Notes under the pieces: model-generated
Told to the model about the DNA's origin: nothing
What the model saw: the letters and a program-made list of their open reading frames with translations, nothing else
Database searches by the model: none
Program-made: the position numbers and the translations under genes
Shown: in pieces, positions 12,629 through 61,106 of the stretch
How positions within the stretch are numbered: the stretch's first letter is position 1
How the letters are laid out: every line of letters begins with the position of its first letter
Assembly: GCA_038884615.1 (NCBI GenBank)
Contig: JAWABL010000001.1
Location: forward strand, 57,837 to 121,836
From: Candidatus Woesearchaeota archaeon
GTDB taxonomy: Archaea > Nanobdellota > Nanobdellia > Woesearchaeales > DSVV01
Direction: 5' to 3'
Length of the DNA stretch: 64,000 nt

Positions 12629-13855
12629 TTAGATGTAGTTTGTGATTTTTGTCTGACATTGCCGCTTTAAAAGGACGCTTGATTTTATAAGCCCGTTTAT
12701 GTCAAGTCCAAACTTTTTCTTAAATAGCGCAATAGCGTAATCAAGCATAAGCTGTTTTGTATCAAACAAAAGTGGTTTTGTTGCAAAGGTTTTTCTTGCG
12801 GCCTCTCGCGTCACCCATACCCCAAGAGGAACAAAGTATTCGCCGGTAATCACCCTTATAACTATTGCACCCGCCTGCTTTTGCAAGTCTCTGAGCTTTT
12901 CAAGCAACGCCAATCTTACAGAGTAGTATCCGCCAGCGCAGTTTTCTGCATAGCTTTTTCTTCCATCATATCCTTCATAATCGGTTGTGTATTCAAGGCT
13001 TTGGCTTTTGTTCCAACTTGCGTTTGGCATGTAGGTTTCAAACAGTTCGTAGCTCCATATTTCCGGAAAGAGCATAAAAAGGTAATAGTTTCCAAGATAA
13101 GAACCAAAAAAAGACATATTATCTTCAATTGGAGGATAGTCCTTAATTTCAGATAACATTTGCTTTGCAAGCATATCATCTGTGGCTGTAATGCTCCATC
13201 TTGTTGGAACAAGTTTTCTATTAGATTTTAAACCTAAGCTTCCTATAGAGAAGAGCTTTGCGATAAAATTTTCATCATAGCCAGACTCGAACAACTGCCA
13301 TGCCGCACCCATTGCTTTGAAATCAGTATCGTCAACAATCTGCTCAACTATCCTGTCAATTTTCGGGTTTGAAGTGATATCAGCAAAAACAAGCTTTGCG
13401 CTTGGACCATATGGCGGTGAAGAAGGGTCGGTAGTAAGCGAAAATTTAGGTTTTTCTTCAAGTTTTATTTCAACATCCACGGGCTTTGAAGCCATGGCGA
13501 CCTGCCTACCAATATCAACAAGCCTATTGTTTTTATGTATGTCTCCCTTTGAGAGCGAGTTAATAAGAGAGCTCCTTAGGTCAACAATTTGTTGTATTCC
13601 ATAGTCCGCCGACGCCCAATAAGAAGGCGAATCATACTGCCATGCATCTGCTTTTGGCTCATGCAAGCTAAGAAGCCCTATACTGACATTAGGATAGCCG
13701 ATTCTACCGACAAAGGGCGCAGGAGATTGTGTTGCAAACTCGCTTGAATTTAAAGAATGGCTTATCTTAAACAAAGAAGACGCTTTGATAAGATGTGGGC
13801 AGAATGCCCTTCCACAGTACCCCCTCCCCTTGCAACGGACGCAGATAATCCTCAT
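12629..13855 (-). CDS. Nre-family protein (archaeal putative DNA-repair protein with N-terminal C4 zinc finger)
   Basis: Start moved to internal ATG (MRIICVRCKGRGYCGRAFCPHL) matching the Nre N-terminal Cys4 signature; ~408 aa typical for NreA/NreB; family assignment from memory of Pfam Nre_N/Nre_C. Confidence 0.5.
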   Translation of the reverse strand: MRIICVRCKGRGYCGRAFCPHLIKASSLFKISHSLNSSEFATQSPAPFVGRIGYPNVSIGLLSLHEPKADAWQYDSPSYWASADYGIQQIVDLRSSLINSLSKGDIHKNNRLVDIGRQVAMASKPVDVEIKLEEKPKFSLTTDPSSPPYGPSAKLVFADITSNPKIDRIVEQIVDDTDFKAMGAAWQLFESGYDENFIAKLFSIGSLGLKSNRKLVPTRWSITATDDMLAKQMLSEIKDYPPIEDNMSFFGSYLGNYYLFMLFPEIWSYELFETYMPNASWNKSQSLEYTTDYEGYDGRKSYAENCAGGYYSVRLALLEKLRDLQKQAGAIVIRVITGEYFVPLGVWVTREAARKTFATKPLLFDTKQLMLDYAIALFKKKFGLDINGLIKSSVLLKRQCQTKITNYI

Positions 13856-17815: not shown

Positions 17816-18023
17816 TTTGAAAGCAAAAATTGTTCCTTAATTGTCCTAATAACCCTCTACAACCATTTATTCCTTGGATAAGTTATAACTTAAAGTAGTA
17901 AAAATAACTTGCAGAGACTGAATAGAAAGCTTAGGGAATGCAACACTAAATTTTTATAAGGGATATATTTTCAATATTTCTTTGTATTAATATTTAGGAT
18001 ATAATACAGCAAATGTAGATGCG

Positions 18024-18034
18024 AGCTTATAAAA
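18024..18034 (+). promoter_or_regulatory. putative TATA box for tRNA-His
   Basis: CTTATAAAAAG 28-38 nt upstream of the tRNA 5' end. Confidence 0.35.
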
Positions 18035-18061
18035 AGTATCTGTAAAGGGCATGATTTTTTT

Positions 18062-18211
18062 GGCGGCCATGGTGTAGCCCGGTAGCATAAGGGACTGTGG
18101 ATCCCTTGGGCCGAGTTCAAAAAGCATTTTGCAAAAGATACGTCGACATAGCAGGGCAATCTTTTTGTCTGGGTTAAGAGTGCAATGGCTTTGAAAGTCT
18201 CGGTGGCCGCC
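18062..18211 (+). tRNA. tRNA-His (anticodon GUG) with encoded G-1 and a ~75-nt intron in the T-loop
   Basis: G-1 pairs with C73 (His identity); acceptor GCGGCCA/TGGCCGC; D-arm GUGU-AGCCCGGUA-GCAU; anticodon arm AGGGA-CUGUGGA-UCCCU; T-stem CCGAG...CTCGG with GTTCAAAA then ~75 nt inserted before the 3' T-stem strand. Confidence 0.75.
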
Positions 18212-18301
18212 CTTTTAACTTTTTTGGCCTTGCATGCTTAAAAATGCGCAAGAGAACAGCCATATAATAAAACTATAAAAAGATTATAAGAGGAATTTAA
18301 A

Positions 18302-18481
18302 TGGACCTGGAGGGATTCGAACCCTCGACCCCCAGCTTGCTTCTGGTTTAGAAGGCTGGTGCCCTATGTTCCCAGTCAAAGCAGTGCTGAAGCTTCCCAG
18401 CTTACTTTCCTGCTACTTATTTAAATTTTAGACAATTCTTGTTGTCTAAAAAAAAAGACCGCCAGGCTAGGCTACAGGTCC
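18302..18481 (-). tRNA. tRNA with a ~95-nt D-loop intron and a short canonical intron (anticodon most parsimoniously UCU, Arg)
   Basis: minus strand: acceptor GGACCUG/CAGGUCC + A73; T-arm GAGGG-UUCGAAU-CCCUC; D-stem GCCU/GGGC; anticodon stem CCAGC/GCUGG enclosing CUUCUA + 11 nt; the large insert contains a perfect 9-bp hairpin (TTTAGACAA...TTGTCTAAA). Confidence 0.6.
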
Positions 18482-18710
18482 AAAAATTGCAAATATAAAA
18501 ACATTAACTCTGGTATTTGATTCAATATATAAAATTTTATAAAATAACTAACATTAATTTTGAATATTTAATATTAAGCGATTAATAAACAATAAAATTG
18601 CCAAGCAAAAAACAAGGGTATATAAATAACATGAATTTTTTGCTTGTTAAAGATTAAAAAGCATTAACAATAAAAGTTATAAAAATTAAGAAGATATAAA
18701 CAAAGAAAAT

Positions 18711-18833
18711 GCGGGGGTAGCCAAGCGGCTAAGGCGATCGGCTGCAGCAGGTGCTGTAAAAAGCGGTATTATGAGCGTTATGCGATGAAATGAAGATACC
18801 GATTATTCGAGGGTTCAAGTCCCTCTCCCCGCT
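18711..18833 (+). tRNA. tRNA (probably Cys, anticodon GCA) with ~50-nt intron at the canonical 37/38 position
   Basis: acceptor GCGGGGG/TCCCCGC; T-arm GAGGG-UUCAAGU-CCCUC; anticodon stem AUCGG...CCGAU enclosing CUGCAG + ~50 nt; TATA GTTATAAAAAT ~30 nt upstream. Confidence 0.65.
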
Positions 18834-19257
18834 CTTTTTATAATAAATAGTAAAAGAGAAAACTATACAAATAATCCAAGACAAGAATTCTTATCCTTTG
18901 TTTTTGTCTTTAGTTGTGAAGGAATATTCTTGACCACATTAGCAATAACATGTGGTTTTAACTCTGAAAAATCTGTTAGCCTTGAATTTTTTTTACCTGC
19001 ATTGTAGGAGACCGGCATTTTGATATTCCTTTTTATTATTCTTTTTAAATATTTTCGTAGTTTAAAATATATATTAATATATTATTTAATATACTAAAAC
19101 GAAAAATATTTAAATTTATTTTATTATAATTCTGAAAATCTGAAATTATAACAAAATTTTCATATAAAAAAATTGAAATTCATATATTTTTTATGAATAT
19201 CAGAAAAAGAGAGATAAGCTACAATTTTAGCAATTAAGTCTTTAAAAAGAGGAGCAC

Positions 19258-40136: not shown

Positions 40137-40744
40137 TTTTTATAACATCTCTCTTTGGGTTGTTTTCTTAAGCACGTTTGCAGTGCGTTAGTTCTGCACT
40201 CATGTTTTTATACACTCTATAAGCTTTTTATATATACACACTTTACTTTTTGTGGCCATTATTATAGCCATTATAATATGAAGGTCAATATGAAATTTTA
40301 TTATTGCTATTTGTTATTGCCATCATTGCCAGAAACCAACCAATACCGCCTGCCCAGTATCAAAGAATTCCTAAACTTTGTACTGAAAATATTTATTTTC
40401 AGGCGCAGTTTAGTTTTTGGCTATTGTACAGAACCATTAGCTAGTATCAACTTAAATGTAATGGTTCATTGGCACATAAGACTACACTTTTTTGTGCCTT
40501 TCATTGCAAGATTTAAAGGGGATTTATAAATCTTGCTGTTTTTTATGAATATTGTGAAAGTTATATTTCATTTTAGATTTTTTTGAATTTTTTATTTTCC
40601 TTTTATTTTCCATATAATCTAGTAATTTAGTATAATTTATTAGTATAAACAAAACAAAAAAAGGTTTCATCCAAAAAAACAATAAATCGATAGATTTAAA
40701 TATATGTTATATGTTTTTTGATTAAAATTTAGGGGGTGAAATAA

Positions 40745-41122
40745 ATGAGTGATACTTTAGCAAAAGTTGGTGCATACGCATTCATAGTTGGTGTTGTCAT
40801 TGCAGTAATAACTGCGTTTATACCACCAAATTGGTTACCGATGGCTTTTGTTGCACTAGCACTTATCGGTTTGGTTGTAGGATTTTTAAATGTTACAGAA
40901 AAGGAAACAAAAGAATTTTTAATGGCTTCTGTAGCAATGTTAATTGCATTGTTTACTGCGAGAAGCGCGGTTGACATGATGGCTGAAAGCTTTACAGCCA
41001 TTGGTTTTGGCGCGGTGAGCAATTATATGATATCTCTTCTCGCAAGTATCAATATGTTTATCTTCCCAGCTACATTAGTTGTTGCGCTGAAAGCAATTTA
41101 TGCGCTTGCTAAAGAAGAGTAA
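40745..41122 (+). CDS. small hypothetical membrane protein (3-4 transmembrane helices)
   Basis: 125 aa, GGGGGTGA Shine-Dalgarno motif 5 nt upstream of ATG; 33 nt upstream of flippase-like gene. Confidence 0.4.
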   Translation: MSDTLAKVGAYAFIVGVVIAVITAFIPPNWLPMAFVALALIGLVVGFLNVTEKETKEFLMASVAMLIALFTARSAVDMMAESFTAIGFGAVSNYMISLLASINMFIFPATLVVALKAIYALAKEE

Positions 41123-41155
41123 AGGTTTTATATTATCTTTTTTCTTGTTTATTTT

Positions 41156-45610: not shown

Positions 45611-46185
45611 TGTATTGCGATATTGTGTTTCCAAAAAATAATGAACGCGAGTTTCTGCAAGTTGCGAGGTTTTTAGGTTATGAAAAACTAGTCTTTGTAT
45701 ACGAAACTGCGCCAATCAATATTCCAAAAGAGAATGGTGCCGTGGTGGTTTTTGGTGCATCTACAAAGCAAAAGCCAAAATGGGCGGAATACCTAATTCT
45801 GGAATCTACTGGAGACGACAGAAAAACGATTGAAACTCTGCGTCCGGAGATAATATATGGTTTTGAAACAAAAAATACCAAGGACGGCCTGCATTATAGA
45901 AATTCTGGCTTAAACCATGTTCTTTGCGCCCTTATGAGAGAGAATAATGTGGCTTGCGGGTTTTCACTTAGCGCATTGATAAACCACAAAAATAGGCAGG
46001 TTTTGCTTGGAAGGATGAAACAAAATATAAGACTCTGCAGAAAGTTCGGAGTGAAGCAGGTAATAGCAAGTTTTAGCGACGAGCCTATGGCAATGCGTGC
46101 GCCACGCGACATTATTAGCCTTTTTGTGTGTTTAGGTATGGAAAGCGGCGAAATAAAAAATGCGTTAAGATGCTTTCAAAAATGA
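45610..46185 (+). CDS. rnp3: RNase P protein component 3 (Rpp30)
   Basis: 191 aa; GLNHVLCALM..NVACGFSL and APRDIISL...LGME motifs match archaeal Rpp30 (e.g. Pyrococcus PH1877); TAATG overlap with ttuA. Confidence 0.65.
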   Translation: MYCDIVFPKNNEREFLQVARFLGYEKLVFVYETAPINIPKENGAVVVFGASTKQKPKWAEYLILESTGDDRKTIETLRPEIIYGFETKNTKDGLHYRNSGLNHVLCALMRENNVACGFSLSALINHKNRQVLLGRMKQNIRLCRKFGVKQVIASFSDEPMAMRAPRDIISLFVCLGMESGEIKNALRCFQK

Positions 46186-47924
46186 TAGATGTCGGATTTT
46201 CTTTTATCAACACCGGAAAAGAGTGTAACAATAGATGCTGGTCGTGCGCCCCGTTGCAAACCAAAAAAACTAAAGGTCATAATATTATAATAGGCGGTGG
46301 AGAGCCACTGCTAAAAAAGAAGGTTTGTGACACTTCAAAGCTAATAGATTTTTTTTTGCCTAAAAACAGAAAAAAACAGGTGATAGATAAACAAAGAAGA
46401 ATTTGGGTGCTTACAAACGGTCGTCTTATTACAAAAATAAAATCCGGTGCTTTAAAGGACCCCTATTTAGGTTTTATTGTAAAGCTTTTAGCGCATAAAC
46501 CAGAACTTCATGACCTACTTTCCTGCGTTGAGGGTAGCTTTGAGGAAACAGTAAAGGGGATAATACACCTAAAAAAGAAAAAGGTACCTTTTGGCATTTT
46601 ATTTACAATTGTTGACCAGAACTATGTACACTTAAGCAGAATGGTTGCGTTTGCCGAAAAACTTGGCCCTGCATTTATAATACTAAAGTATGCCGAGACC
46701 GGTCGCGTTTTTGAAAAAACTGCTCCTAAATATTCTCACGCCATAGAAGAGATAAGGAAGGCGCTTGCAAGCAAGACTTATGTGCTGGTAGCAGGCGTGC
46801 CTCCTTGCATGCTCAAAGAAGATAAGGACCACTGGCTCTGGTGGCCGGAACAAAGAACAAAACTATCTTATTGTAAACTATGCAGTGAATCAGATGGCGC
46901 GTGCGATGGAGTGTCTAGAGACTACCTTAAGGTCTATGGCGAAGAAGAGTTTAAAACCACGCTGGCAAGCGAACTGAAGTTTGAAGTTACTGGCGCCTGC
47001 AACATGTCCTGTGAGTTCTGTTTTAGAAAACAGCTTAATAGAATCGGGGCAAACACAAAGGAGCTATCATTTGTAGAAAAATGCCGAATAATTGACTCTG
47101 CGGCAGAGTATGTAAAAAGTATTAGGTTCACTGGCGGCGAGCCTCTTCTTTACAATCGCCTTTTTGAGCTTGCAAGATATGCAAAAGACAAAAACCCAAA
47201 TTTATACTTGAAATTAAATACCAATGGAATTCTTTTGGGTGATTTTACTGATGAAATTAAAAAACATTTTGACGAAGTAATTATTTCATTTCATGAACTT
47301 ATACCAAAAAAAGACCCCGCACTTTTTGAAACCCGGCTAAACGGAATTAAGATTCTAAAAGAGCTTGGAGTGACAGTAAGAATAAATACACTTGCGACTA
47401 AAGAGAATATCGCGAGATTTGATAAATTCTCTCTTCTAACAAACGAATGCATGAGCGACGAATGGCAATGGATTATTCCTGAGCCGTGCGATGAAAAAAG
47501 AAGAATAGATAAGCGGGATCTTATTAAGCTTGTTAATAGAATAACAAAATATGATGGTGCGGTTCCTGTCTGCTTGACACAAGCAATAGAATTCTGTTAC
47601 TATGGCAAGCCCGCAGAAGTAAAGAAAGCGTATATAAACGGGAAAAATCATTGCGGACCGCAAAGTTCGCTTTTTGTTGATTCGTGTGGCAATTACCGTT
47701 TATGCTATGCAGGCCCAGTGTTTGGAAACGCCCTTCAAATGAAGTTTAAGGACGCTTGGAACCACGATATGCTAAAAGCACTGCGCACGGGTGTGTTTTA
47801 CCCAAAAAAGTGTATAGGGTGTGCGTATATATATGATTGTCGCGGTGGTTGTAGCTTATTACTAATGAAAAAGGTGGGTGTGTGGAAAGAAAAAATAACC
47901 AGAAAAAAGAGAAGATTTTGCTGA
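46182..47924 (+). CDS. tandem double radical-SAM protein with C-terminal SPASM-like Cys-rich domain
   Basis: two CxxxCxxC cores (CNNRCWSC and CNMSCEFC), each followed by GGEPLL; C-terminal Cys cluster (CGPQ...CGNYRLC...CIGC...C); ATGA overlap with rnp3. Confidence 0.7.
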   Translation: MIDVGFSFINTGKECNNRCWSCAPLQTKKTKGHNIIIGGGEPLLKKKVCDTSKLIDFFLPKNRKKQVIDKQRRIWVLTNGRLITKIKSGALKDPYLGFIVKLLAHKPELHDLLSCVEGSFEETVKGIIHLKKKKVPFGILFTIVDQNYVHLSRMVAFAEKLGPAFIILKYAETGRVFEKTAPKYSHAIEEIRKALASKTYVLVAGVPPCMLKEDKDHWLWWPEQRTKLSYCKLCSESDGACDGVSRDYLKVYGEEEFKTTLASELKFEVTGACNMSCEFCFRKQLNRIGANTKELSFVEKCRIIDSAAEYVKSIRFTGGEPLLYNRLFELARYAKDKNPNLYLKLNTNGILLGDFTDEIKKHFDEVIISFHELIPKKDPALFETRLNGIKILKELGVTVRINTLATKENIARFDKFSLLTNECMSDEWQWIIPEPCDEKRRIDKRDLIKLVNRITKYDGAVPVCLTQAIEFCYYGKPAEVKKAYINGKNHCGPQSSLFVDSCGNYRLCYAGPVFGNALQMKFKDAWNHDMLKALRTGVFYPKKCIGCAYIYDCRGGCSLLLMKKVGVWKEKITRKKRRFC

Positions 47925-49750
47925 TTAGGCCTCCGATAATTGAAGTTTACAGCAAACATTTTTGTTGTAGAACATATAGTAAATTTGACAGGTTTTACTC
48001 CTACGCTGCACAGCCTGCTGGGCTACTTCGTGTGGCAAGCTACCTAAAAAAACAGGGGCATGAGGTTATACTTATAGACTGTCTTGCTGAAGTAGAAAAG
48101 TGCCATCCAAATTCTGTGCTTAACCGCAGGTTTTTTGATGTGCGGCGTTCTCCCGCAGGCCTTACTTTAAGAAGATACTATCACGGAATGTCTTACCAAG
48201 ATATTGAGAGGAGAATCAACGACGAAAAACCAGATAGGATAATGATAGGCACCAGCATGACATACTACTATGAAACGGTACATGAAATAGTAAAGATAGC
48301 AAAAAGGGTCTGCCCTCATACGCCGGTTGTTCTCGGCGGACTTTATGCAACACTTTGTTCTGAGCATGCAAAGAAAAGCGGTGCAGATATTGTATACTCC
48401 GGTGAGTTGCCAGAAGCAAACAACATCTGGACAGATTTGACACTTCTATCCTACAAACCAAAATATGCAATAATAAAATCAACGCGCGGCTGTCCTAACA
48501 ACTGTACATATTGTGTGGTTCCAAAACTTGAAGGCCACACGATGCGTTTCCGTTGCCCCTCAGATGTGGTTGAGGAGATTAAGGATAAGATTAAAAAGCA
48601 CAAGATTAGAAAATTTATATTTTGGGAGTCTAATCTGCTTATGAAAAGCAGGGAACATTTTGAAAAAATCCTGGATATTATAATATCTGAAAAAATAAAA
48701 GTGGAACTACATACACCAGAAGGTCTCCAACCGAACCTTCTTAATGAACCGCTTGCAAGAAAGATGAGGCTTGCTGGCTTTAAATATGTTTCCTTGCCTC
48801 TTGAAACAAGCGATGACAGATATAACAAAACGCTCAATAGAAGAACAAAAACTAAAGATTTTGATAATGCGGTGAGTGTGCTTCTAAGATCTGGGTTTTC
48901 GCCTAAAGACATTACTGTTTTTGTCCTTGCTGGACTACCTGAACAGGACATAGAAAATGTTGTAGACTCGGTTCTGAAGGCGTTTGAACATGGTTGCCGA
49001 CTTAGCATTATGCCCTTTACTCCGATTCCTGGCTCAGAGGAGTTCTCTAAACATAGAGATGTCTTTGAGACAATACGCCTTGAGGACATGCATCCATTGA
49101 TGTTTTCTGCAGTAAAAGACAAGGAAAAAGCAAGAGACTTGCTTGCAATATGCGAGCTGCATCATAGTTCATACTCGTTTTTACATGTTTTGTCGTGTTT
49201 GAAACATCGCCCCCACGTTCTACGGCTATTTATAAAGAAAATAAAAGAAAATAAAATCTTGCTTGAAAAAACATGCAGAGAGCTTGGACACAAGAGGAGT
49301 GCAAGGGCTTTGCTTGAGATAGACTGGATAGACTGGTTTCCAAAAAAAGACGAAGTAAGTACGGGGCATTCGCAAACAAATCTATATTATGAAAATAATC
49401 AAAAAAATCGCGGACTAAAGAGACTCTTGTTTGATTGGGGCACCCTTCTTTTTTTATCTACAAAAATGCACCGCCGTTTTTTTAGGCAGGTTTATAAAAT
49501 GCTTGACAGAAATGATGTTTTTGTTTTTCGTGTCTTTACAAAGTATGCTATCTATTGCGAAAAATATTTCGATGATAACCCTCTTTGTGTACTCATTGAG
49601 ACAAACAACATAAAAAAAATCAAAGATGCCGTTCAAGGGCTATTTAAAATTAAAAAAAGATACTATAAAGATTTTGTACCTGTGAAAATAGGAAACCAAA
49701 CAAAACTTGCTCCTTCTATGATTGTTTTTGTTGTTGGAAAGAGTTATTGA
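47882..49750 (+). CDS. B12-binding-domain radical-SAM protein (class B rSAM)
   Basis: N-terminal Rossmann-like B12-binding region then CPNNCTYC radical-SAM motif; 622 aa; 43-nt overlap with upstream rSAM gene. Confidence 0.7.
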   Translation: MERKNNQKKEKILLIRPPIIEVYSKHFCCRTYSKFDRFYSYAAQPAGLLRVASYLKKQGHEVILIDCLAEVEKCHPNSVLNRRFFDVRRSPAGLTLRRYYHGMSYQDIERRINDEKPDRIMIGTSMTYYYETVHEIVKIAKRVCPHTPVVLGGLYATLCSEHAKKSGADIVYSGELPEANNIWTDLTLLSYKPKYAIIKSTRGCPNNCTYCVVPKLEGHTMRFRCPSDVVEEIKDKIKKHKIRKFIFWESNLLMKSREHFEKILDIIISEKIKVELHTPEGLQPNLLNEPLARKMRLAGFKYVSLPLETSDDRYNKTLNRRTKTKDFDNAVSVLLRSGFSPKDITVFVLAGLPEQDIENVVDSVLKAFEHGCRLSIMPFTPIPGSEEFSKHRDVFETIRLEDMHPLMFSAVKDKEKARDLLAICELHHSSYSFLHVLSCLKHRPHVLRLFIKKIKENKILLEKTCRELGHKRSARALLEIDWIDWFPKKDEVSTGHSQTNLYYENNQKNRGLKRLLFDWGTLLFLSTKMHRRFFRQVYKMLDRNDVFVFRVFTKYAIYCEKYFDDNPLCVLIETNNIKKIKDAVQGLFKIKKRYYKDFVPVKIGNQTKLAPSMIVFVVGKSY

Positions 49751-49793: not shown

Positions 49794-50159
49794 TTATGTG
49801 CCGCCGCCGCCGCTTGCATGGCTACTATGACTTGAATGGCTTGCATGACTGCCGTGGTTGTAATGGTGTTTGTGGCCTGCAATTGGTGCGCCGCTTCCAG
49901 AAAGGCTGTTTGAATGATCCCAACACTGTGAATGGCTTGTATCTGTTCCTTTTGCAGGACAGCATCCCGCACGCGTGTCTTTCGCAGATAGTGATACAAG
50001 AGCTGCGCCAGACAAAACACTGCCGATAGTAACTACTGCTTGCTTTGATATTTTTCCATCTTCTTCAAGCAAAAATGCCTCAACATTTTTTTTAATTTTT
50101 GGTAGCGATATGTTAGTTTTTGTTCTGCTTTTTGTATTGTGTTTTAAATTACGCCTCAT
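49794..50159 (-). CDS. small membrane-anchored Cys/His-rich protein (possible metal-binding protein or modified-peptide precursor)
   Basis: Lys-rich N-terminus, one transmembrane helix (AVVTIGSVLSGAALVSLSA), tail GCCPAKG...CWDH...GHKHHYNHGSHASHSSHSSHASGGGG; locally GC-rich; two overlapping alternative-frame ORFs exist, this frame chosen for its membrane topology and biased composition. Confidence 0.4.
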   Translation of the reverse strand: MRRNLKHNTKSRTKTNISLPKIKKNVEAFLLEEDGKISKQAVVTIGSVLSGAALVSLSAKDTRAGCCPAKGTDTSHSQCWDHSNSLSGSGAPIAGHKHHYNHGSHASHSSHSSHASGGGGT

Positions 50160-50657
50160 AATATAACAATTGTGTTCATTGTTTAAAAATTTTTTTATTA
50201 ATTTTTAGGTATAATTAAAAGAAGTAGCATTAAAAAAAACAGTATTAAAAGAATAGTAGTGGTTTGCAATTTTTAGTAGTATCACACCTCTATTTCCTGT
50301 AGAAATTTATTTCTTATGAATTTTTTATGTATATGTTTTGTGTGATCTGATTAATTTATATTTAAATGAAACAATAAAACAATGGAATTAACGAATTATT
50401 TTGTTCTGTATATTTAATTGCAAGATGCTTATATTTTGTTTCAATATTGAAAAATATTATTACATAATTATAAATTAATCAAAGATGATTATAAATAATT
50501 ATTAACTTTTATTACATTCATATAAAAAATAGTATAAAACACAGAAAACAAGAACTGATTTTAAAAACAATTTTTAAATTTTCCATGAGAAACAATGGGG
50601 TGTTGGTTGTTTTTATTTTAGTAATATTTTTAAAGCATTATTTCTTGTGGAAACTTA
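50160..50657. promoter_or_regulatory. putative chromosomal replication origin (oriC) with ORB-like repeats and AT-rich unwinding element
   Basis: ~500-bp >80% AT intergenic region directly upstream of orc1/cdc6-polD; ORB-like TTCCATGAGAAACAATGGGG (50581..50600) and mini-ORBs TTTCCTGTAGAAA (50293..50305), TTTCTTGTGGAAAC (50641..50654) resemble the archaeal TTCCAGTGGAAAC(G)...GGGG origin recognition box. Confidence 0.55.
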
Positions 50658-51863
50658 ATGGTTCAGCAAGGATTAACGCATTTTTTTGAGTCTTTTCTAA
50701 AGCAAGAACCAATTTTTAGGGAAAAGAAGGTCTTGCAGCTTAGCTACACCCCAACAGAGGTTTTTCACAGAGATGATGAGATAAAACAGCTTGCAAATAT
50801 TCTTGCGCCAGCACTTCGGCTTGAAAGACCTTCAAATATCTTTCTTTATGGTAAAACAGGAACTGGGAAAACGCTATGTGCCATTTATACAACCAATAAT
50901 ATAATCCAAGTTGCAGAAGATAAAGGCATTCCATTGCGTGTTATTTATATCAACTGCAAATTAAAGCGCGTTGCTGATACAGAATATCGACTTTTTGCAT
51001 ATATTCTTGGCGAGCTTGGGATATCTGTTCCGACGACCGGTTTGCCAACACAAGAGATTTATAGCGCATTTGAAAGTTATATTGATCAGAAAAAGCAGGT
51101 ATTTATAATTATACTTGATGAAATAGACCAACTTGTAAAGAAAGTCGGGGATAATATTATCTATAATCTTACCCGGCTCAATACACGGCTTAAAAACTGC
51201 CAGATTTCCATAGTAGGAATTTCAAACGATATACTTTTTATAGACAACATAGACCCACGGGCAAGGTCTTCTTTGAGCGAAGAAGAAATAATATTTCCAC
51301 CTTATAACGCACTCCAACTCCAGGACATTCTACGGAAAAGAGCCGAACGGGCGTTTAAGGAAAATGTGATTGAAGAGGGCGTTATAGAAAAATGTGCGGC
51401 ATATGCAGCAAGAGAACATGGAGATGCGAGACGAGCGCTCGAGCTTTTGCGTGTTGCAGGCGAGATAGCAGAGCGTTCACAGTCACAGAAAGTAAAGATT
51501 GAACATATTGATATGGCCGAGGAGAAAATTGAGAAGGACAGGGTTCTTGACATAGTTGCGCAACAACCGAAACAGCAGCAAGCGGCGCTTTACGCCATAA
51601 TCACCCTTGCACAGGGCACCCAGTCTATAATATACACTGGCGAAGTTTATGAAATATACCAAAAAATATGTAAAGATGCTGGACTTAGACCGCTCACACA
51701 ACGTAGACTTTCAGATATCTTAGGCGAGCTTGATATGCTTGGCATAATAAACGCCAAGGTCATATCAAAAGGCAGGTTTGGCAGAACACGCGAAATAAGC
51801 CTTGCAATTTCCTCAATCACAACACAAAAAATTAAAAAAATACTTGAGCAGGGCTTTGGCTGA
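50658..51863 (+). CDS. cdc6: Orc1/Cdc6 replication initiator (AAA+ ATPase + winged helix)
   Basis: Walker A YGKTGTGKT, Walker B ILDEID, sensor motifs, C-terminal winged helix. Confidence 0.9.
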   Translation: MVQQGLTHFFESFLKQEPIFREKKVLQLSYTPTEVFHRDDEIKQLANILAPALRLERPSNIFLYGKTGTGKTLCAIYTTNNIIQVAEDKGIPLRVIYINCKLKRVADTEYRLFAYILGELGISVPTTGLPTQEIYSAFESYIDQKKQVFIIILDEIDQLVKKVGDNIIYNLTRLNTRLKNCQISIVGISNDILFIDNIDPRARSSLSEEEIIFPPYNALQLQDILRKRAERAFKENVIEEGVIEKCAAYAAREHGDARRALELLRVAGEIAERSQSQKVKIEHIDMAEEKIEKDRVLDIVAQQPKQQQAALYAIITLAQGTQSIIYTGEVYEIYQKICKDAGLRPLTQRRLSDILGELDMLGIINAKVISKGRFGRTREISLAISSITTQKIKKILEQGFG

Positions 51864-53464
51864 TGCAAACAAACAACAAGAAGGAAATTGTAAAATATTT
51901 TCTCGAACAAAATATACTTATAAGCCATGACCTACTTGAACGGCTTGATGAACAGATGTTTGCGGTGATAAAAGAACGATTAGGGAAGCTGAAAGGCGAA
52001 CGACTCTTCTTAGCAAAAGGCGAGCTAGATGCGCTGCTAAGCAAGGACAAAGAAGAACCCTGGCGCAAAGATATATTCGAAGGCAAAAACCCTCCACACA
52101 TCACTGCAGCACAAAAAAAAACAAACGAAAAAGATGCGTTTGAACACAAACACACAGAGCCAGCGTATTTTGAAGACATAGACCAGAAAAATAGCGATTC
52201 AATTGACAGATGCAATCGAGTTAGCATTATCGCATCGTACAATGAGCCCCCAAAAAAACAGGACATACAAAACTTTATCAAACACTACAATTCACGATTT
52301 AAAGCGCTAGAATCAATGCTAAGAAACCGGCCAGAGTTACAAAACCTAAACTCTATTGGAAGAGTCTTGCAAAAAAAGGAGCGCGAAACTACAAGCATAA
52401 TAGGCATTGTGAAAGAAAAAATCGTAAGCGGAGGAAAAATCAAGATAGTATTTGAAGACCTGTCAGGCGAAATTCCAGTTATTGTCGACAAAAGCAAAAG
52501 CGAGCTTTTTAGTCAGGCACAAAATATAACTGAAGATGAGGTTCTTGGAGTTTTAGGAATCTCTTCAGGAAGAGTGTTATATGCAAATAGTTTCTATTGG
52601 CCAGATGTTCCACTAAATAAAGAGATACGCAAATCTCCCGACAAGGCGTATGCAATGTTTCTTTCGGATTTACATATAGGCTCAAAAAAATTTTTGCGTC
52701 CTGAATTTGAGAAGTTTCTTCGCTGGCTTAACAATCCAGGAGACAATGAAAGGCACAGGGATATTGTAGAAAACTTAAAGTATTTATTTATCATAGGAGA
52801 CCTTGTTGACGGTGTTGGGATTTATCCAGGACAAGAAGCAGAGCTTGAGCTTACGGACATATATAAACAATATGACGAATGCGCCCGGCTTCTTAGGCAA
52901 ATTCCTGAATACGTGTCTATAATAATCTGTCCAGGCAATCATGATGCTTTAAGACTTTCTGAACCTCAACCACCAATATATAAGGAGTTTGCTCCTGGAA
53001 TCTATAATCTTAAGAATGTTACAATTGTAAGTAATCCAGCACTAGTTAACATTCACGCGTCTAAAATTTTTTCAGGATTTGATGTTCTTATGTATCATGG
53101 ATACAGCTTTGATTATTTTCTCCAAAATATTGAGCATATCAGAGCGAACGGCGGCTACGACAGAGCCGATTTAGTTATGAAATTTCTTCTTCAAAGAAGA
53201 CACCTCTCACCTACCCACACAGCAACATTATATGTGCCCGATCCGTTGCGTGACCCTCTAATAATAAATAAAGTACCTGACTTTTTCGTGACGGGCCACA
53301 TACATAAAACAGCGGTCTCAAACTATAGAAATGTTTCGCTTATCTGTGGCTCATGTTGGCAGGCAAAGACCGCATTTCAGGAGCGAGTTGGTCACCACCC
53401 AGAGCCAGCGAGAGTGCCGGTTGTGAATTTACAAACCCGCGAAACAAGAATACTCAGGTTTTGA
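51863..53464 (+). CDS. DNA polymerase II (PolD) small subunit DP1, 3'-5' exonuclease
   Basis: calcineurin-like phosphoesterase motifs (LSDLHIG, GDLVDG, GNHD); 1-nt overlap with cdc6 stop. Confidence 0.9.
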   Translation: MQTNNKKEIVKYFLEQNILISHDLLERLDEQMFAVIKERLGKLKGERLFLAKGELDALLSKDKEEPWRKDIFEGKNPPHITAAQKKTNEKDAFEHKHTEPAYFEDIDQKNSDSIDRCNRVSIIASYNEPPKKQDIQNFIKHYNSRFKALESMLRNRPELQNLNSIGRVLQKKERETTSIIGIVKEKIVSGGKIKIVFEDLSGEIPVIVDKSKSELFSQAQNITEDEVLGVLGISSGRVLYANSFYWPDVPLNKEIRKSPDKAYAMFLSDLHIGSKKFLRPEFEKFLRWLNNPGDNERHRDIVENLKYLFIIGDLVDGVGIYPGQEAELELTDIYKQYDECARLLRQIPEYVSIIICPGNHDALRLSEPQPPIYKEFAPGIYNLKNVTIVSNPALVNIHASKIFSGFDVLMYHGYSFDYFLQNIEHIRANGGYDRADLVMKFLLQRRHLSPTHTATLYVPDPLRDPLIINKVPDFFVTGHIHKTAVSNYRNVSLICGSCWQAKTAFQERVGHHPEPARVPVVNLQTRETRILRF

Positions 53465-53466
53465 AA

Positions 53467-56400
53467 ATGGACGAATATTTCAAGGCTATACAAAACCAAG
53501 TTTCAGGGTGTTATGAAATAGCGTCAGCAGCGAGGAAACAAGGCAAGGACCCAGAAGATATGGTCGATGTAAAACTTGCGAGAAACATGGCCGAGCGTGT
53601 TGAGGGGCTGATTAGTGCAGTTGCGCCTCAACTGGTAGGTACAGGATTTACAAAACGAATAATTGAGCTTGAAAACGAATTCGGTGCACTTGACTGGCGA
53701 GTTGCACTTGTTATTGCAGATGAAGTTGCGCATGAAAAATTTGCTTCTTTCAAAGATAAACGAGAAGCTATGGAGGTGGGTATCCGGGCAGGATTTGCCT
53801 ATCAGACGGGTGGAATTGTGGCCGCTCCCCTAGAAGGATTTATTGAGCTTAAAATAAAGAGGCGTCGTGACGGCAAGGAGTATGTTGCGCCCTGCTATGC
53901 AGGACCCATACGTGGCGCAGGTGGAACAGCGGCTGCGTTTTCGCTTATTCTAACAGATTATGTTCGCATGCGGATGGGTTTTGAAATATTTGACCCTGAA
54001 GAAACAGAAATAGCCAGATACAAAACTGAAATATCAGACTATCATGAAAGAGTAACCAACCTTCAGTATTTTCCTTCACAAGAGGAGATAGATTTTCTTG
54101 CGAGAAAACTTCCAGTGCAGATAGATGGTGACCCAACAGAACAAATTGAGGTCTCAAACTATAAAGATATAGACCGAATTGAAACAAACCGAATACGCGG
54201 AGGAGTTTGTCTTGTTTTTGCTGAAGGGCTTGCCCAAAAAGCGCCGAAGCTATGGAAACGCCTTCAAAAATGGGGTAAAGATTTTGGTATTGATTGGTCT
54301 TTTTTAGATGAGTTTATATCATTACAGAAGAAGATAAAAGCAAAAGCTAAAGTTGAAAACCACAAAGAGAAGATAACACCCAACTATACATATATTAATG
54401 ATATTGTCGCCGGCAGGCCGGTTCTTTCACATCCTCTTGCGATAGGCGGTTTTAGGCTGAGGTATGGTAGGTCAAGGGCAAGCGGGTTTTCGTGCGCAGC
54501 GATTAATCCTGCGCTGATGATTCTTCTGAAGAATTATATCGCAACAGGTACGCAATTAAAAGTTGAGCGCCCGGGAAAGGCAGTGTCAATAACACCATGT
54601 GATACAATTATGGGCCCTATTGTTAGGCTTTATGATGGTACAGTACTGGAAATCTCAACTGCCCAAGAGGCAAAGATGTATAATACTAAAGTGGAGAAAA
54701 TACTCTATCTTGGAGATTTGCTAGTGAGCCATGGAGATTTTTCTGAGAACAACCACCCTCTTGTTCCGTGTGGGTTTAATGAAGATTGGTGGGCAAGAGA
54801 ACTTGAAAAAGCAATAATAGATTTGTTTGGCTCGCTAGATGCAGAAAAAGTTTCAGAGCACACAGATATCCCCACAAATATTATTGCCTCTTTATTGAAA
54901 AATCCTGCAACAAGTAAGATTTCGGTAGAGCACGCAATCCAGTTTTCAGAAACACTTGATGTTCCTCTTCATCCAAAATTCACATATTTTTGGGATATTA
55001 TAACAATCGAGGACCTAAAGGCCCTTATTATACACCTTTCTAAACCCAACACAAAAATCATAGAAGAGTCCATAGAACAGAAATCTAAGCATGTAAAAAT
55101 AGTTCTACCAGAAGAACAAAATGTGAAACACACACTAGAGCGTCTTGGAGTGCCTCACCTGTTTGTAAATAAAGAGTTTATTATTCTTGAAGGAGAACAC
55201 GCAAGAGCAATTCTTTACTCTCTTGGTTATTACAAAAAATATGATTTTGCCGACCTTATTGACAGGATAGAAAAGGCCCATTCACCCCAATCATGCATTG
55301 AAGTTTTGAACATCGGGGGCGTTCGGCTGATGCCGAAAGGCGGCACATTTATTGGTGCTCGCATGGGAAGGCCAGAAAAAGCAAAGATGAGAAAAATGGT
55401 CGGTGGTCCACAGGTGTTGTTTCCTGTAGGTGAAGAAGGCGGCAGGCTAAGAAGTTTTCAGTCTGCCTTAGAACAAGGAAAAATAAAGGCCGATCTGCCT
55501 ATAATGTATTGTAAAGCATGTAACAAAGAAACAATTTATCCAACATGTGAAGTTTGTCAAAGAAAAACACTACAGAGATATTACTGCAAAAAGTGCGGTG
55601 TCATCCTAGAACCAATATGTAAACTACATGGCGTGGCTAGCACATATTCTCTTCAGGATATTGATGTCAAGCACTATTTTGAGGCAGCACTCGCGACCCT
55701 TAAAATGAACATCTATCCAGATTTGATAAAAGGAGTTAGGGGCACAAGCAACAAAAACCATCAACCTGAAAATCTAGTTAAAGGAATCCTGCGTGCAAAG
55801 TATGATCTCTATGTGAACAAAGACGGAACCGTGAGGTTTGATATGACTGAGTTGCCAATCACACATTTTCGGCCTGAAGAAATAGGTACTTCGCTAGAGA
55901 AACTTCACGAGCTTGGGTATACTACAGACATAAAAAATCAACCACTTGTTAAGTCTGATCAAGTTGTAGAGATTAAACCACAGGACATTATACTCCCTTC
56001 GGCGCCAGAGGCACTTGATGAGCAAGCAGACAAGGTACTCTTAAGAGTTGCAAAATTCGTTGATGAATTATTAGTATATTTTTACGGGATGAAGCCTTTT
56101 TATAACGCAGAGAAAAGGGAAGACCTTGTAGGACATTTGGTTGTTGGTCTCGCACCACACATCTCTGCAGGGATGGTCGGTAGAATAATTGGCTTTTCAA
56201 ACACGCAGGGAATGTTTGCACATCCACTCTTCCACGCGGCGCTTAGGAGAGATTGTGATGGGGACGAGGCATGCGTAATACTTCTCCTGGACGCATTGCT
56301 TAACTTTTCAAGACAATTTTTGCCAGATTCAAGAGGTGCAAAAACAATGGATGCACCGCTTGTCTTGACATCAAAAATATGTGCTGCAGAGGTAGACGAT

Positions 56401-57006
56401 ATGGCGCACGGACTTGATATTGTCTGGAACTATCCTCTTGCCTTGTATAAGGCAGCTCAAGAATATAAGAACACCTCAGAAATAAGGGTTGAGCAGATTA
56501 AACATGTTCTAGGCACGGAGAGACAGTATCAAGGCATGGGGTTTACGCATGATGTCTCAAGCATAAATATGGGAGTAAATTGTTCAGCTTACAAAGCGCT
56601 TCCTTCAATGGAAGACAAACTCCTTGGACAGATGGAACTCGCTGAGAAGATTAACGCGGTAGACGAGAAGGATGTTGCAAGGCTGGTGCTTGAAAAGCAT
56701 TTGCTTAAGGACACACGCGGCAATTTAAGGAAGTTCTCAACACAGCAGTTTCGCTGCGTAAAGTGCAATGAAAAGTTCAGAAGACCGCCCCTTACTGGAT
56801 CCTGTACCAGGTGTGGCGGGAGGCTTATCTTCACAGTTTCAGAGGGGTCTGTTACAAAATACCTTGAACCTTCAATTAGCCTTGCAAAAAAGTATTCTGT
56901 CCCGGCATATTTAACCCAGTCAATAGAACTTTTGAAAATGCGTGTAGAGGGGGTGTTTGGGAAAGAACGCGAGGTGCAACACGGGCTTGGAAAATGGTTT
57001 GGTTGA
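53467..57006 (+). CDS. DNA polymerase II (PolD) large catalytic subunit DP2
   Basis: ~1179 aa from ATG at 53467 (ORF track extends upstream over DP1); two Cys clusters (CKACN..C..C and CVKCN...CTRCGG); no intein apparent. Confidence 0.9.
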   Translation: MDEYFKAIQNQVSGCYEIASAARKQGKDPEDMVDVKLARNMAERVEGLISAVAPQLVGTGFTKRIIELENEFGALDWRVALVIADEVAHEKFASFKDKREAMEVGIRAGFAYQTGGIVAAPLEGFIELKIKRRRDGKEYVAPCYAGPIRGAGGTAAAFSLILTDYVRMRMGFEIFDPEETEIARYKTEISDYHERVTNLQYFPSQEEIDFLARKLPVQIDGDPTEQIEVSNYKDIDRIETNRIRGGVCLVFAEGLAQKAPKLWKRLQKWGKDFGIDWSFLDEFISLQKKIKAKAKVENHKEKITPNYTYINDIVAGRPVLSHPLAIGGFRLRYGRSRASGFSCAAINPALMILLKNYIATGTQLKVERPGKAVSITPCDTIMGPIVRLYDGTVLEISTAQEAKMYNTKVEKILYLGDLLVSHGDFSENNHPLVPCGFNEDWWARELEKAIIDLFGSLDAEKVSEHTDIPTNIIASLLKNPATSKISVEHAIQFSETLDVPLHPKFTYFWDIITIEDLKALIIHLSKPNTKIIEESIEQKSKHVKIVLPEEQNVKHTLERLGVPHLFVNKEFIILEGEHARAILYSLGYYKKYDFADLIDRIEKAHSPQSCIEVLNIGGVRLMPKGGTFIGARMGRPEKAKMRKMVGGPQVLFPVGEEGGRLRSFQSALEQGKIKADLPIMYCKACNKETIYPTCEVCQRKTLQRYYCKKCGVILEPICKLHGVASTYSLQDIDVKHYFEAALATLKMNIYPDLIKGVRGTSNKNHQPENLVKGILRAKYDLYVNKDGTVRFDMTELPITHFRPEEIGTSLEKLHELGYTTDIKNQPLVKSDQVVEIKPQDIILPSAPEALDEQADKVLLRVAKFVDELLVYFYGMKPFYNAEKREDLVGHLVVGLAPHISAGMVGRIIGFSNTQGMFAHPLFHAALRRDCDGDEACVILLLDALLNFSRQFLPDSRGAKTMDAPLVLTSKICAAEVDDMAHGLDIVWNYPLALYKAAQEYKNTSEIRVEQIKHVLGTERQYQGMGFTHDVSSINMGVNCSAYKALPSMEDKLLGQMELAEKINAVDEKDVARLVLEKHLLKDTRGNLRKFSTQQFRCVKCNEKFRRPPLTGSCTRCGGRLIFTVSEGSVTKYLEPSISLAKKYSVPAYLTQSIELLKMRVEGVFGKEREVQHGLGKWFG

Positions 57007-60829: not shown

Positions 60830-61106
60830 TATGCGGGCACACTCCAGAATGGACTTTGCTAGGCTGCATCAGTTTAACCTCGGTACCTTCTCAGTTCCGC
60901 TACCCTGTAAGCACCTGACGACTTAGTTAGTACTGCTCCATTCCTGGCCTGATACCTTTCCCAAGACGCCGATCCTACAGGACAGAACTTCACAGTTGGA
61001 ACCAAGACTGGTGAAACACAGCAATGCCTCTTCTGGAGTTTCGGTCCCATCATATAGCCCATCTATGGTGACAGGAGAGGGCTAACCTCCCGACCTAGCC
61101 CGCAGT
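60830..61106 (-). ncRNA. ffs: signal recognition particle RNA (7S/SRP RNA)
   Basis: minus-strand 5' end UGCGGGCUAGGUCGGGAGGUUAGCCCUCUCCUGU closely matches archaeal SRP RNA Alu-domain start (GGGCUAGGCCGGGGGGUU...UCCCCUGU as recalled); terminal helix UGCGGGC/GCCCGCA; domain-IV-like GUCAGGUG...GGAA...GAUGCAGCC; ~277 nt; TTTTTAAAA TATA ~25 nt upstream; T-run after 3' end. Confidence 0.7.

Follow-up and report, generated by a model that had tools for sequence, protein, structure and literature searches.

In oriC1 of Sulfolobus, the origin recognition boxes (ORBs) ORB2 and ORB3 are inverted around a DNA unwinding element (DUE). Neither of them is dispensable in vivo, and MCM is directed to the DUE by the two boxes jointly (PMC12141716). 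More generally, an inverted ORB pair around a DUE represents the minimal functional archaeal origin, in which the winged-helix (wH) domain of the initiator is placed on the dyad of the box and the initiator-specific motif (ISM) of its AAA+ domain on the G-rich motif (bioRxiv 10.64898/2026.08.15.744077). For euryarchaea an ORB consensus GTTCCAGTGGAAAC-AAA----GGGGG was published (PMC1868953). Here we discuss a region of this kind from a Candidatus Woesearchaeota archaeon (DPANN). It is located in a stretch of 64,000 nucleotides of contig JAWABL010000001.1, which was analyzed at its full length and is called the window in the following; all coordinates are counted from its first letter. The region is the gap at 50160..50657, bounded exactly by a minus-strand open reading frame (ORF, 49794-50159) and by the ATG at 50658 of a 401-residue ORF, the orc1/cdc6 initiator gene, behind which the genes for both subunits of DNA polymerase D (PolD) are found. 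A first-pass annotation had proposed an oriC beside orc1/cdc6-polD that contains ORB-like boxes as well as an AT-rich region for unwinding, and this proposal is now strongly backed by comparative evidence. We consider it very probable that the locus is a chromosomal replication origin of the oriC1 type, which is fused to the promoter of the initiator gene. Modestly new elements are the clade-wide three-ORB architecture, with one ORB fused to the cdc6 TATA box, and an A/T asymmetry of the DUE.

Origin recognition boxes, unwinding element and initiator

The comparison is based on 160 related loci from genome and metagenome contigs, whose Cdc6 is 55-65% identical to that of the window, plus two further loci at 69%; 149 of the loci are distinct. 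About 9 kb per relative contig was examined, and relatives were compared at the level of motifs rather than by nucleotide alignment. A metagenome scan for closer Cdc6 proteins found nothing above 64%. Within 700 nt upstream of cdc6, the commonest shared non-AT 9-mers are TTCCATAGG, CCATAAGAA, GAAACAAAG and AAGGGGTGG, which occur in up to 20 of 67 loci. Shared upstream 9-mers were almost all at zero in size-matched coding controls. For a 23-nt ORB matrix, only sequences of about 150 relatives were used and none of the window. In the refined consensus, tTTCCAtAnGAAATaAAGGgGT, the dyad core is separated by 4 nt from a G-string; the motif is the classical origin recognition box.

When both strands of the window were scanned with this matrix (128 kb), the three top matches, with 28.4, 26.4 and 19.0 bits, were all located in the gap within 371 nt. 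The next-best match of the window (13229-13251, minus strand) reached 14.5 bits. In block-shuffled windows the maximum score had a mean of 11.5 bits and a highest value of 19.3 bits. Likewise, the pattern TTCYNNNRGAAA is matched on both strands at three sites only in the 64 kb, all of them inside the gap. In the relatives, matches of at least 17 bits were found at 2.65 per kb upstream of cdc6 versus 0.006 per kb elsewhere, an enrichment of about 440-fold; outside the upstream zone only 5 such matches are present in 828 kb. The three ORB-like boxes of the first-pass annotation are indeed present where it had placed them, as scored with a matrix that is independent of the window.

The distal box, ORB-L, is located at 50283..50305 on the minus strand (26.4 bits), which reads TTTCTACAGGAAATAGAGGTGTG (also written TTCTACAGGAAATAGAGGTGTG). 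Its dyad core comprises residues 50293-50304 and its G-string, GGTGTG at 50283-50288, points to the left, away from the DUE. The proximal box, ORB-R, is located at 50580..50602 on the plus strand, reads TTTCCATGAGAAACAATGGGGTG (also written TTCCATGAGAAACAATGGGGTG) and is the best match of the window with 28.4 bits. Here the core is found at 50581-50592, and the G-string, GGGGTG at 50597-50602, points to the right, towards cdc6. Both boxes match the published euryarchaeal consensus. The 12-nt core is near-palindromic, and the polarity of a box is set by its G-string together with asymmetric core positions (TTCCA, with the A at 99%). For ORB-L, the core alone scores 15.3 bits on the minus strand versus 9.0 bits on the plus strand. 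ORB-L (minus) and ORB-R (plus) are thus inverted around 274 bp with a GC content of 15.7%. The first-pass annotation had described the boxes as co-oriented and, for this reason, as atypical. This description has to be given up: by the matrix, its first box is on the plus strand and its second and third boxes are on the minus strand, so that the full ORBs are inverted. The misreading is explained by the near-palindromic core, which reads alike on both strands.

From left to right, the window contains ORB-L (minus), the AT-rich stretch, ORB-R (plus), a third box termed ORB3 (minus) and the cdc6 ATG, which can be abbreviated as '-+-'. In 88 relatives, 1.2 kb or more of DNA upstream of cdc6 is available, and among them this type is the commonest (38 loci), followed by '-+' (28) and '-++' (11). 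The pair of a minus ORB and a plus ORB around an AT-rich stretch is present in 80 of the 88 loci. The same number carries a minus ORB at -250 to -900, and the plus ORB is found at -15 to -340. The spacer between the two ORBs of the relatives has a median length of 306 nt (range 62-933) and a GC content of 17.2%, compared with 35.5% for the loci. The ORB(-)/DUE/ORB(+) layout observed here is the canonical archaeal origin arrangement.

The predicted DUE comprises the 274 bp between the inverted ORBs (50306..50579, GC 0.157). The gap as a whole has a GC content of 0.191 versus 0.390 for the window. The claim that this is the lowest value of the window holds at the scales of 498 nt and 300 nt and fails at 200 nt, where 19018-19217 (GC 0.12, beside a tRNA gene) is below the gap. 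By nearest-neighbour energies, the segment 50439-50538 is the second least stable of the window (-96.5 kcal/mol per 100 bp; window mean -129.5, standard deviation 7.8). The plus strand of the DUE shows an AT skew of -0.225 in the left half, which is T-rich next to the distal ORB, and of +0.200 in the right half, which is A-rich next to the proximal ORB. The bias is symmetric: in both halves, A predominates on the strand read in the direction of the adjacent ORB. The relatives (n=71) show the same trend with means of -0.133 (left) and +0.067 (right), the left half being lower in 51 of 71 loci (paired Wilcoxon p = 2.7e-5). This asymmetry may reflect a strand preference of Orc1 or MCM. Binding of archaeal Orc1 to T-rich single-stranded DNA is reported in PMC8287685. 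Profiles of the relatives anchored on the ORBs revealed no ucm-like conserved motif on the DUE side of the boxes, only A-richness. A repeat finder returned inverted repeats within the AT-rich DNA, and matches of such kind are expected at 16% GC.

Two other AT-rich gaps of the window, at 18.4-19.3 kb and 40.1-41.2 kb, were considered as alternative origins and rejected, since they contain no ORB matches above noise. The first of them belongs to a 1.4-kb gap (17816-19257), where the AT content over 200 nt reaches its maximum for the window, likewise without ORB matches. This gap also harbors a 123-nt tRNA gene (18711-18833, plus strand; Rfam RF00005, 47.9 bits), which presumably bears an intron; ARAGORN reported no tRNA in the whole window.

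A further observation concerns the assemblies. For 59 of the 148 distinct loci of relatives, the contig breaks off within 1 kb on the upstream side of cdc6, compared with 13 of 148 within 1 kb on the downstream side (binomial p = 4e-8). Metagenome-assembled genomes (MAGs) of Woesearchaeota are thus particularly prone to assembly breaks at the AT-rich origin, which accounts for the frequent MAG contig ends just upstream of cdc6.

The orc1/cdc6 gene (50658..51863, plus strand) encodes an initiator of 401 residues that belongs to the Orc1-1 class. Pfam detects Cdc6_C (1.6e-27), Cdc6_lid (8.6e-26) and AAA, and the protein is 100% identical to the NCBI entry 'ORC1-type DNA replication protein [Candidatus Woesearchaeota archaeon]'. 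Its closest solved structures are those of Sso Orc1-1 (2qby_A, E 2.6e-108) and Ape ORC1 (2v1u_A, E 9.7e-99), both of them Orc1 proteins that were crystallized on ORB DNA. As a structural match Orc1-3 is far behind (E 1.5e-44). Origin binding or its specificity is reduced in Sso Orc1-1 when R341 (helix-turn-helix), R365 (wing) or G120/L121 (ISM) are mutated (PMC3089459). The corresponding residues of the window's protein are R349, R373, G128 and L129, i.e. all four are conserved; this correspondence was read from the structure-match alignment with the 11-residue offset of the crystallized chain. In complete Nanobdellota genomes, which were rotated to ORC1, ORC1/Cdc6 is a single-copy core gene (bioRxiv 10.64898/2026.05.13.725050).

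Based on these features, a mechanism can be proposed. Monomers of the adjacent Orc1/Cdc6 would bind ORB-L (minus) and ORB-R (plus) with opposite polarity, the winged-helix domain being placed on the dyad core TTCCA-N3-GAAA and the ISM of the AAA+ domain on the G-string four bases beyond. Both G-strings are located outward of the 274-bp stretch, and the bound proteins would therefore bracket this stretch with their winged-helix sides pointing inward. By analogy with Sulfolobus oriC1, ATP-bound Orc1 would recruit MCM hexamers to the unwinding element, leading to bidirectional replication.

The box within the predicted cdc6 promoter

ORB3 is located at 50631..50653 on the minus strand, which reads TTTCCACAAGAAATAATGCTTTA, and scores 19.0 bits over 23 nt. 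Its core (50641-50652) is the best core of the window with 19.4 bits on the minus strand and less than 8 bits on the plus strand. The G-string is missing, because the position is taken by the predicted TATA box of cdc6, TTTTTAAA at 50627..50634 on the plus strand. This octamer aligns with a conserved TTTAtAaA that abuts ORB3 in the relatives, which suggests its function in the promoter. The complete order in the window is TTTTTAAA (50627-50634), GCATTA, TTTCTTGTGGAAA, CTTA and ATG. ORB3 ends 4 nt before the cdc6 ATG and its core is found at about -17 to -6.

The TATA box is about 23-24 nt away from the ATG. In archaeal promoters, such a distance fits a transcription start at or beside the ATG, as in leaderless transcripts. 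Owing to this spacing, the cdc6 mRNA is presumably leaderless.

When the relatives were anchored on the minus ORB nearest to cdc6, a composite aAaAA..TTTAtAaACCTttgTTTCtTcTGGAAA became apparent, which is mostly followed by the ATG 2-5 nt later. A minus ORB at -75 to -5 is present in 65 of 131 distinct relatives. In 48 of these 65, a TATA-like octamer occurs at a fixed offset and abuts the position where the G-string would be expected. The box nearest to cdc6 is plus-oriented in another 33 of the 131 relatives, with a full G-string (…GAAAtaagggggtg…) that runs into the estimated start codon; examples with the box at -60 to 0 of cdc6 are the loci L051, L055, L058, L063, L072 and L075. This plus-oriented promoter-proximal box looks like a sub-clade variant.

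Downstream of cdc6, the small subunit of PolD, DP1, is encoded at 51863..53464 (plus strand; Pfam DNA_pol_E_B and Metallophos) and the large subunit, DP2, at 53467..57006 (plus strand; N-terminal, central and catalytic PolC_DP2 domains with E-values down to 4e-121). Stop codon of cdc6 and start codon of DP1 overlap by one base (TGATG, 51861-51865). The likely start of DP2, ATG 53467, lies 2 nt past the stop codon of DP1 (53462-53464). The open frame of DP2 extends further upstream to another in-frame ATG, at 53353, and the longer form would overlap DP1 by 112 nt. However, the N-terminal DP2 domain of Pfam starts at residue 41 of this longer ORF. Because of these domain boundaries and the ATG at 53467, the shorter form is likely the real one. 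Overlapping start and stop codons, as claimed earlier for the operon, are thus found for cdc6/DP1, whereas for DP1/DP2 they would result only if ATG 53353 serves as start. In the relatives, DP1 follows immediately 3' of cdc6 in 145 of 146 loci, and DP2 is found downstream in 68 of 74.

Orc1 bound to ORB3 would block the recruitment of TFB and RNA polymerase and in this way repress cdc6. Since the three genes are contiguous or overlapping, the same repression would reach DP1 and DP2. The conserved TATA-ORB-ATG arrangement supports the proposed autorepression of a leaderless cdc6-PolD operon. Autoregulation through the third box had already been suggested in the first pass, and this part gains weight from the conservation; the overlap of the box with the cdc6 start, which had been part of the same claim, is not observed, since ORB3 ends 4 nt short of it.

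Taken further, the promoter of cdc6 in Woesearchaeales would be built into an ORB: the G-string would be replaced by the TATA box, and the approximately 20 nt from there to the ATG of the leaderless mRNA would be filled by the ORB core. By binding to this box, Orc1 would directly repress the entire orc1-DP1-DP2 operon and couple the supply of initiator and PolD to the state of the origin. A sister sub-clade would carry the ORB in opposite orientation at this spot, and the symmetric A/T asymmetry of the DUE towards the two flanking ORBs may reflect the strand preference named above. We put this extended proposal forward tentatively and would rate its chance of being correct slightly below even. 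If it applies, the promoter-embedded ORB suggests that initiator occupancy controls initiator and PolD jointly. In the searchable literature, we found no description of a Woesearchaeota ORB consensus or of a promoter-embedded ORB. The term ORB is absent from the text of the paper on complete Nanobdellota genomes (bioRxiv 10.64898/2026.05.13.725050). Ori-Finder-Arch reports an automated annotation of oriC for a set of phyla with Nanobdellota among them.

Alternative explanations and neighboring genes

Several observations weigh against an active origin at this position. The GC skew of the window keeps its sign across the gap, without a change at 50.4 kb, and the cumulative GC-skew minimum, as calculated for the 64-kb window only, is located near 40 kb at a switch of gene orientation. 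The block at 41-50 kb consists of plus-strand genes, which would be head-on to a leftward fork. We regard the GC skew of the window as uninformative rather than contradictory, because the coding strand dominates it. A pooled test was carried out with 85 relatives, in which the sense-strand skew of the upstream genes (165 minus versus 94 plus) served as a local proxy of replication direction. The sense-strand GC3 skew, i.e. that at third codon positions, did not differ between the strand groups (p = 0.26). The all-site skew was even opposite to the expectation for a G-rich leading strand (0.177 vs 0.137, p = 0.002), a difference that is confounded by amino-acid composition. The score of ORB3 taken alone, 19.0 bits, is only at the level of the best shuffle (19.3); this box is supported by the conservation of its position and orientation. 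Finally, experience from other archaea calls for caution. According to PMC5663688, Thermococcus kodakarensis can do without a canonical origin and without Cdc6, and PMC4595724 describes dormant ORB-bearing origins in Haloferax mediterranei. Since canonical origins can be dispensable or dormant, the use of the present one in vivo is a point that we infer.

The same observations lead to the strongest alternative, namely that the boxes are genuine Orc1 sites which regulate cdc6-PolD, and perhaps the divergent gene, without firing in vivo, while replication starts at another site or is driven by recombination. The position of ORB3 within the promoter is compatible with such a purely regulatory or dormant locus, as are the missing skew inflection, the unsupportive pooled test, the origin- and Cdc6-independent replication of T. 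kodakarensis and the dormant origins of H. mediterranei. However, an operator in a promoter does not need a second, inverted full ORB at a distance of 60-930 nt across a spacer of 17% GC, and yet this pair is kept in 80 of 88 relatives. Moreover, ORC1 is single-copy in complete Nanobdellota genomes, which leaves no obvious other pair of initiator and origin, and no other ORB cluster exists within the 64 kb. Consequently, we consider this alternative unlikely.

A still smaller probability has to be assigned to an origin that belongs to an integrated plasmid or virus-like element instead of the chromosome. Capture of extrachromosomal replicons was proposed for the extra origins of Sulfolobus (PMC4010727), and the left flank of the gap is indeed not conserved: the window has a 121-residue ORF and the plus-strand block of 41-50 kb where relatives have TrmB-like, SpoIIM-like or, in 3 loci, ribosomal protein L3 neighbors. 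Against this, Orc1 is a conserved orthologue of the clade, with 55-80% identity across hundreds of Woesearchaeota contigs, in 145 of 146 relatives its gene is joined in one operon to that of PolD, the core replicative polymerase, and the ORB architecture is found clade-wide. In addition, the window contains core housekeeping genes (a ribosomal protein operon, the RNA of the signal recognition particle (SRP) and a class I Trp/Tyr-family tRNA synthetase). An integrated element is therefore highly improbable.

Chance ORB-like palindromes in an ordinary AT-rich divergent promoter region are effectively refuted already: AT-rich intergenic DNA is common in the window (e.g. 19018-19217) and the loose pattern TTCYNNNRGAAA has 11 window matches versus 5.1 expected, but the three best matrix matches of the 128 kb fall within 371 nt, and about 150 independent relatives show the same motif in the same order and orientation, with the local enrichment given above.

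The left edge of the gap is formed by the divergent 121-residue ORF (49794..50159, minus strand), which belongs to no Pfam family and has no homologue beside cdc6 in the 162 related loci. In its product, a basic N-terminus and a single hydrophobic segment are combined with a tail rich in Cys, His, Ser and Gly (…CCPAKGTDTSHSQCWDHS…HKHHYNHGSHASHSSHSSHASGGGGT). The ORF is convergent with two radical SAM genes (46128-47924 and 47882-49750, both plus strand), one of the SPASM type and one B12-binding; a link to peptide modification would be pure speculation. As in the window, the nearest ORF upstream of cdc6 is divergent (minus strand) in 80 of 85 relatives. Across the origin from cdc6, 38 loci carry a gene for a regulator of the TrmB family (PF01978, 3.7e-20) and 20 loci one for a SpoIIM-like membrane protein (PF01944, 8.3e-16); in the window, neither of the two is encoded at this position.

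Ribosomal protein L3 (39162-40136, minus strand) heads a minus-strand block of small genes that resembles a ribosomal protein operon. It is followed by a 1-kb AT-rich gap (40137-41155), which coincides with the cumulative GC-skew minimum of the window. In the relatives L034, L101 and L110, L3 is located directly across the origin from cdc6 (55% identity, E 1e-134). Because L3 abuts the origin in these three loci, the approximately 10 kb of plus-strand genes at 41-50 kb may have been inserted between ribosomal operon and oriC in the present genome. The archaeal SRP RNA is found at 60831-61105 on the minus strand (RF01857, 159.9 bits), and the window also encodes the tRNA synthetase mentioned above.

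Significance and comparison with described origins

For the uncultivated Woesearchaeota, the data provide a definition of the origin at the sequence level, comprising an ORB consensus, a conserved three-box architecture and the boundaries of the DUE. Genomes could thus be anchored at the real origin instead of the orc1 start codon, and the estimation of growth rates from read depth is supported. The ORB(-)/DUE/ORB(+) design and the recognition mode of Orc1-1 would reach into DPANN essentially unchanged. Current views are not overturned by these results, and a specialist would have predicted an origin at this place.

The first-pass annotation had called the arrangement 'Pyrococcus-type', which is correct for the gene order and does not apply to the boxes. 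Pyrococcus and other Thermococcales share the order oriC-cdc6-dp1-dp2, and in Pyrococcus oriC two ORBs are arranged as an inverted repeat and accompanied by AT-rich regions (PMC1904270). The boxes also agree in their core: with the Woesearchaeota core matrix, ORB1 and ORB2 of P. furiosus score 15.6-16.8 bits. However, the Pyrococcus ORB is 34 bp long and has a spacer of 9 nt between core and G-string (TTCCAGTGGAAATGAAACTCTGGGGGG, from the oligonucleotides of PMC1904270), whereas 4 nt are found here and in the matrix of the clade. Owing to this difference in the spacer, the P. furiosus ORBs reach only 13-14.5 bits with the full matrix. In contrast to the many 13-bp mini-ORBs of Pyrococcus, the gap contains three core matches, one of them in a box without G-string. 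Furthermore, Pyrococcus possesses a second ORB cluster inside dp1. There is no counterpart in the window, since the matrix scan detected no ORB core matches inside dp1 (51863-53464).

In the haloarchaeal oriC1 of Haloferax volcanii and Haloarcula hispanica, ORBs around AT-rich DUEs are likewise located in an orc1-adjacent gap between divergent genes; DP1 is encoded nearby and the G-string contributes to binding (PMC1868953). For ORB3, a functional parallel exists in bacteria. In the autoregulation of dnaA, an initiator site is located in the initiator's own promoter beside the origin (PMC3936714), as proposed here. Proteins and promoter machinery are unrelated in this case, so that the likeness is one of function and not of homology.

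The resemblance to oriC1 of Sulfolobus/Saccharolobus is closer. Two further Sulfolobus origins depend on other initiators, whereas Nanobdellota have a single ORC1, and the Woesearchaeota loci show no counterpart of the conserved ucm-like motif in the DUE. On the other hand, three ORBs are located beside the initiator gene in both cases, and as in Sulfolobus, where Orc1-1 monomers bind with defined polarity, two inverted ORBs flank an AT-rich DUE (PMC12141716). Among the solved structures, Sulfolobus Orc1-1 is the nearest to the Orc1 of the window. The compact box, with dyad core, about 4 nt and GGGGT, matches the 22-bp type of Aeropyrum and Sulfolobus. Thus, with respect to compactness and initiator class, the origin described here is nearest to oriC1 of Sulfolobus and Aeropyrum.

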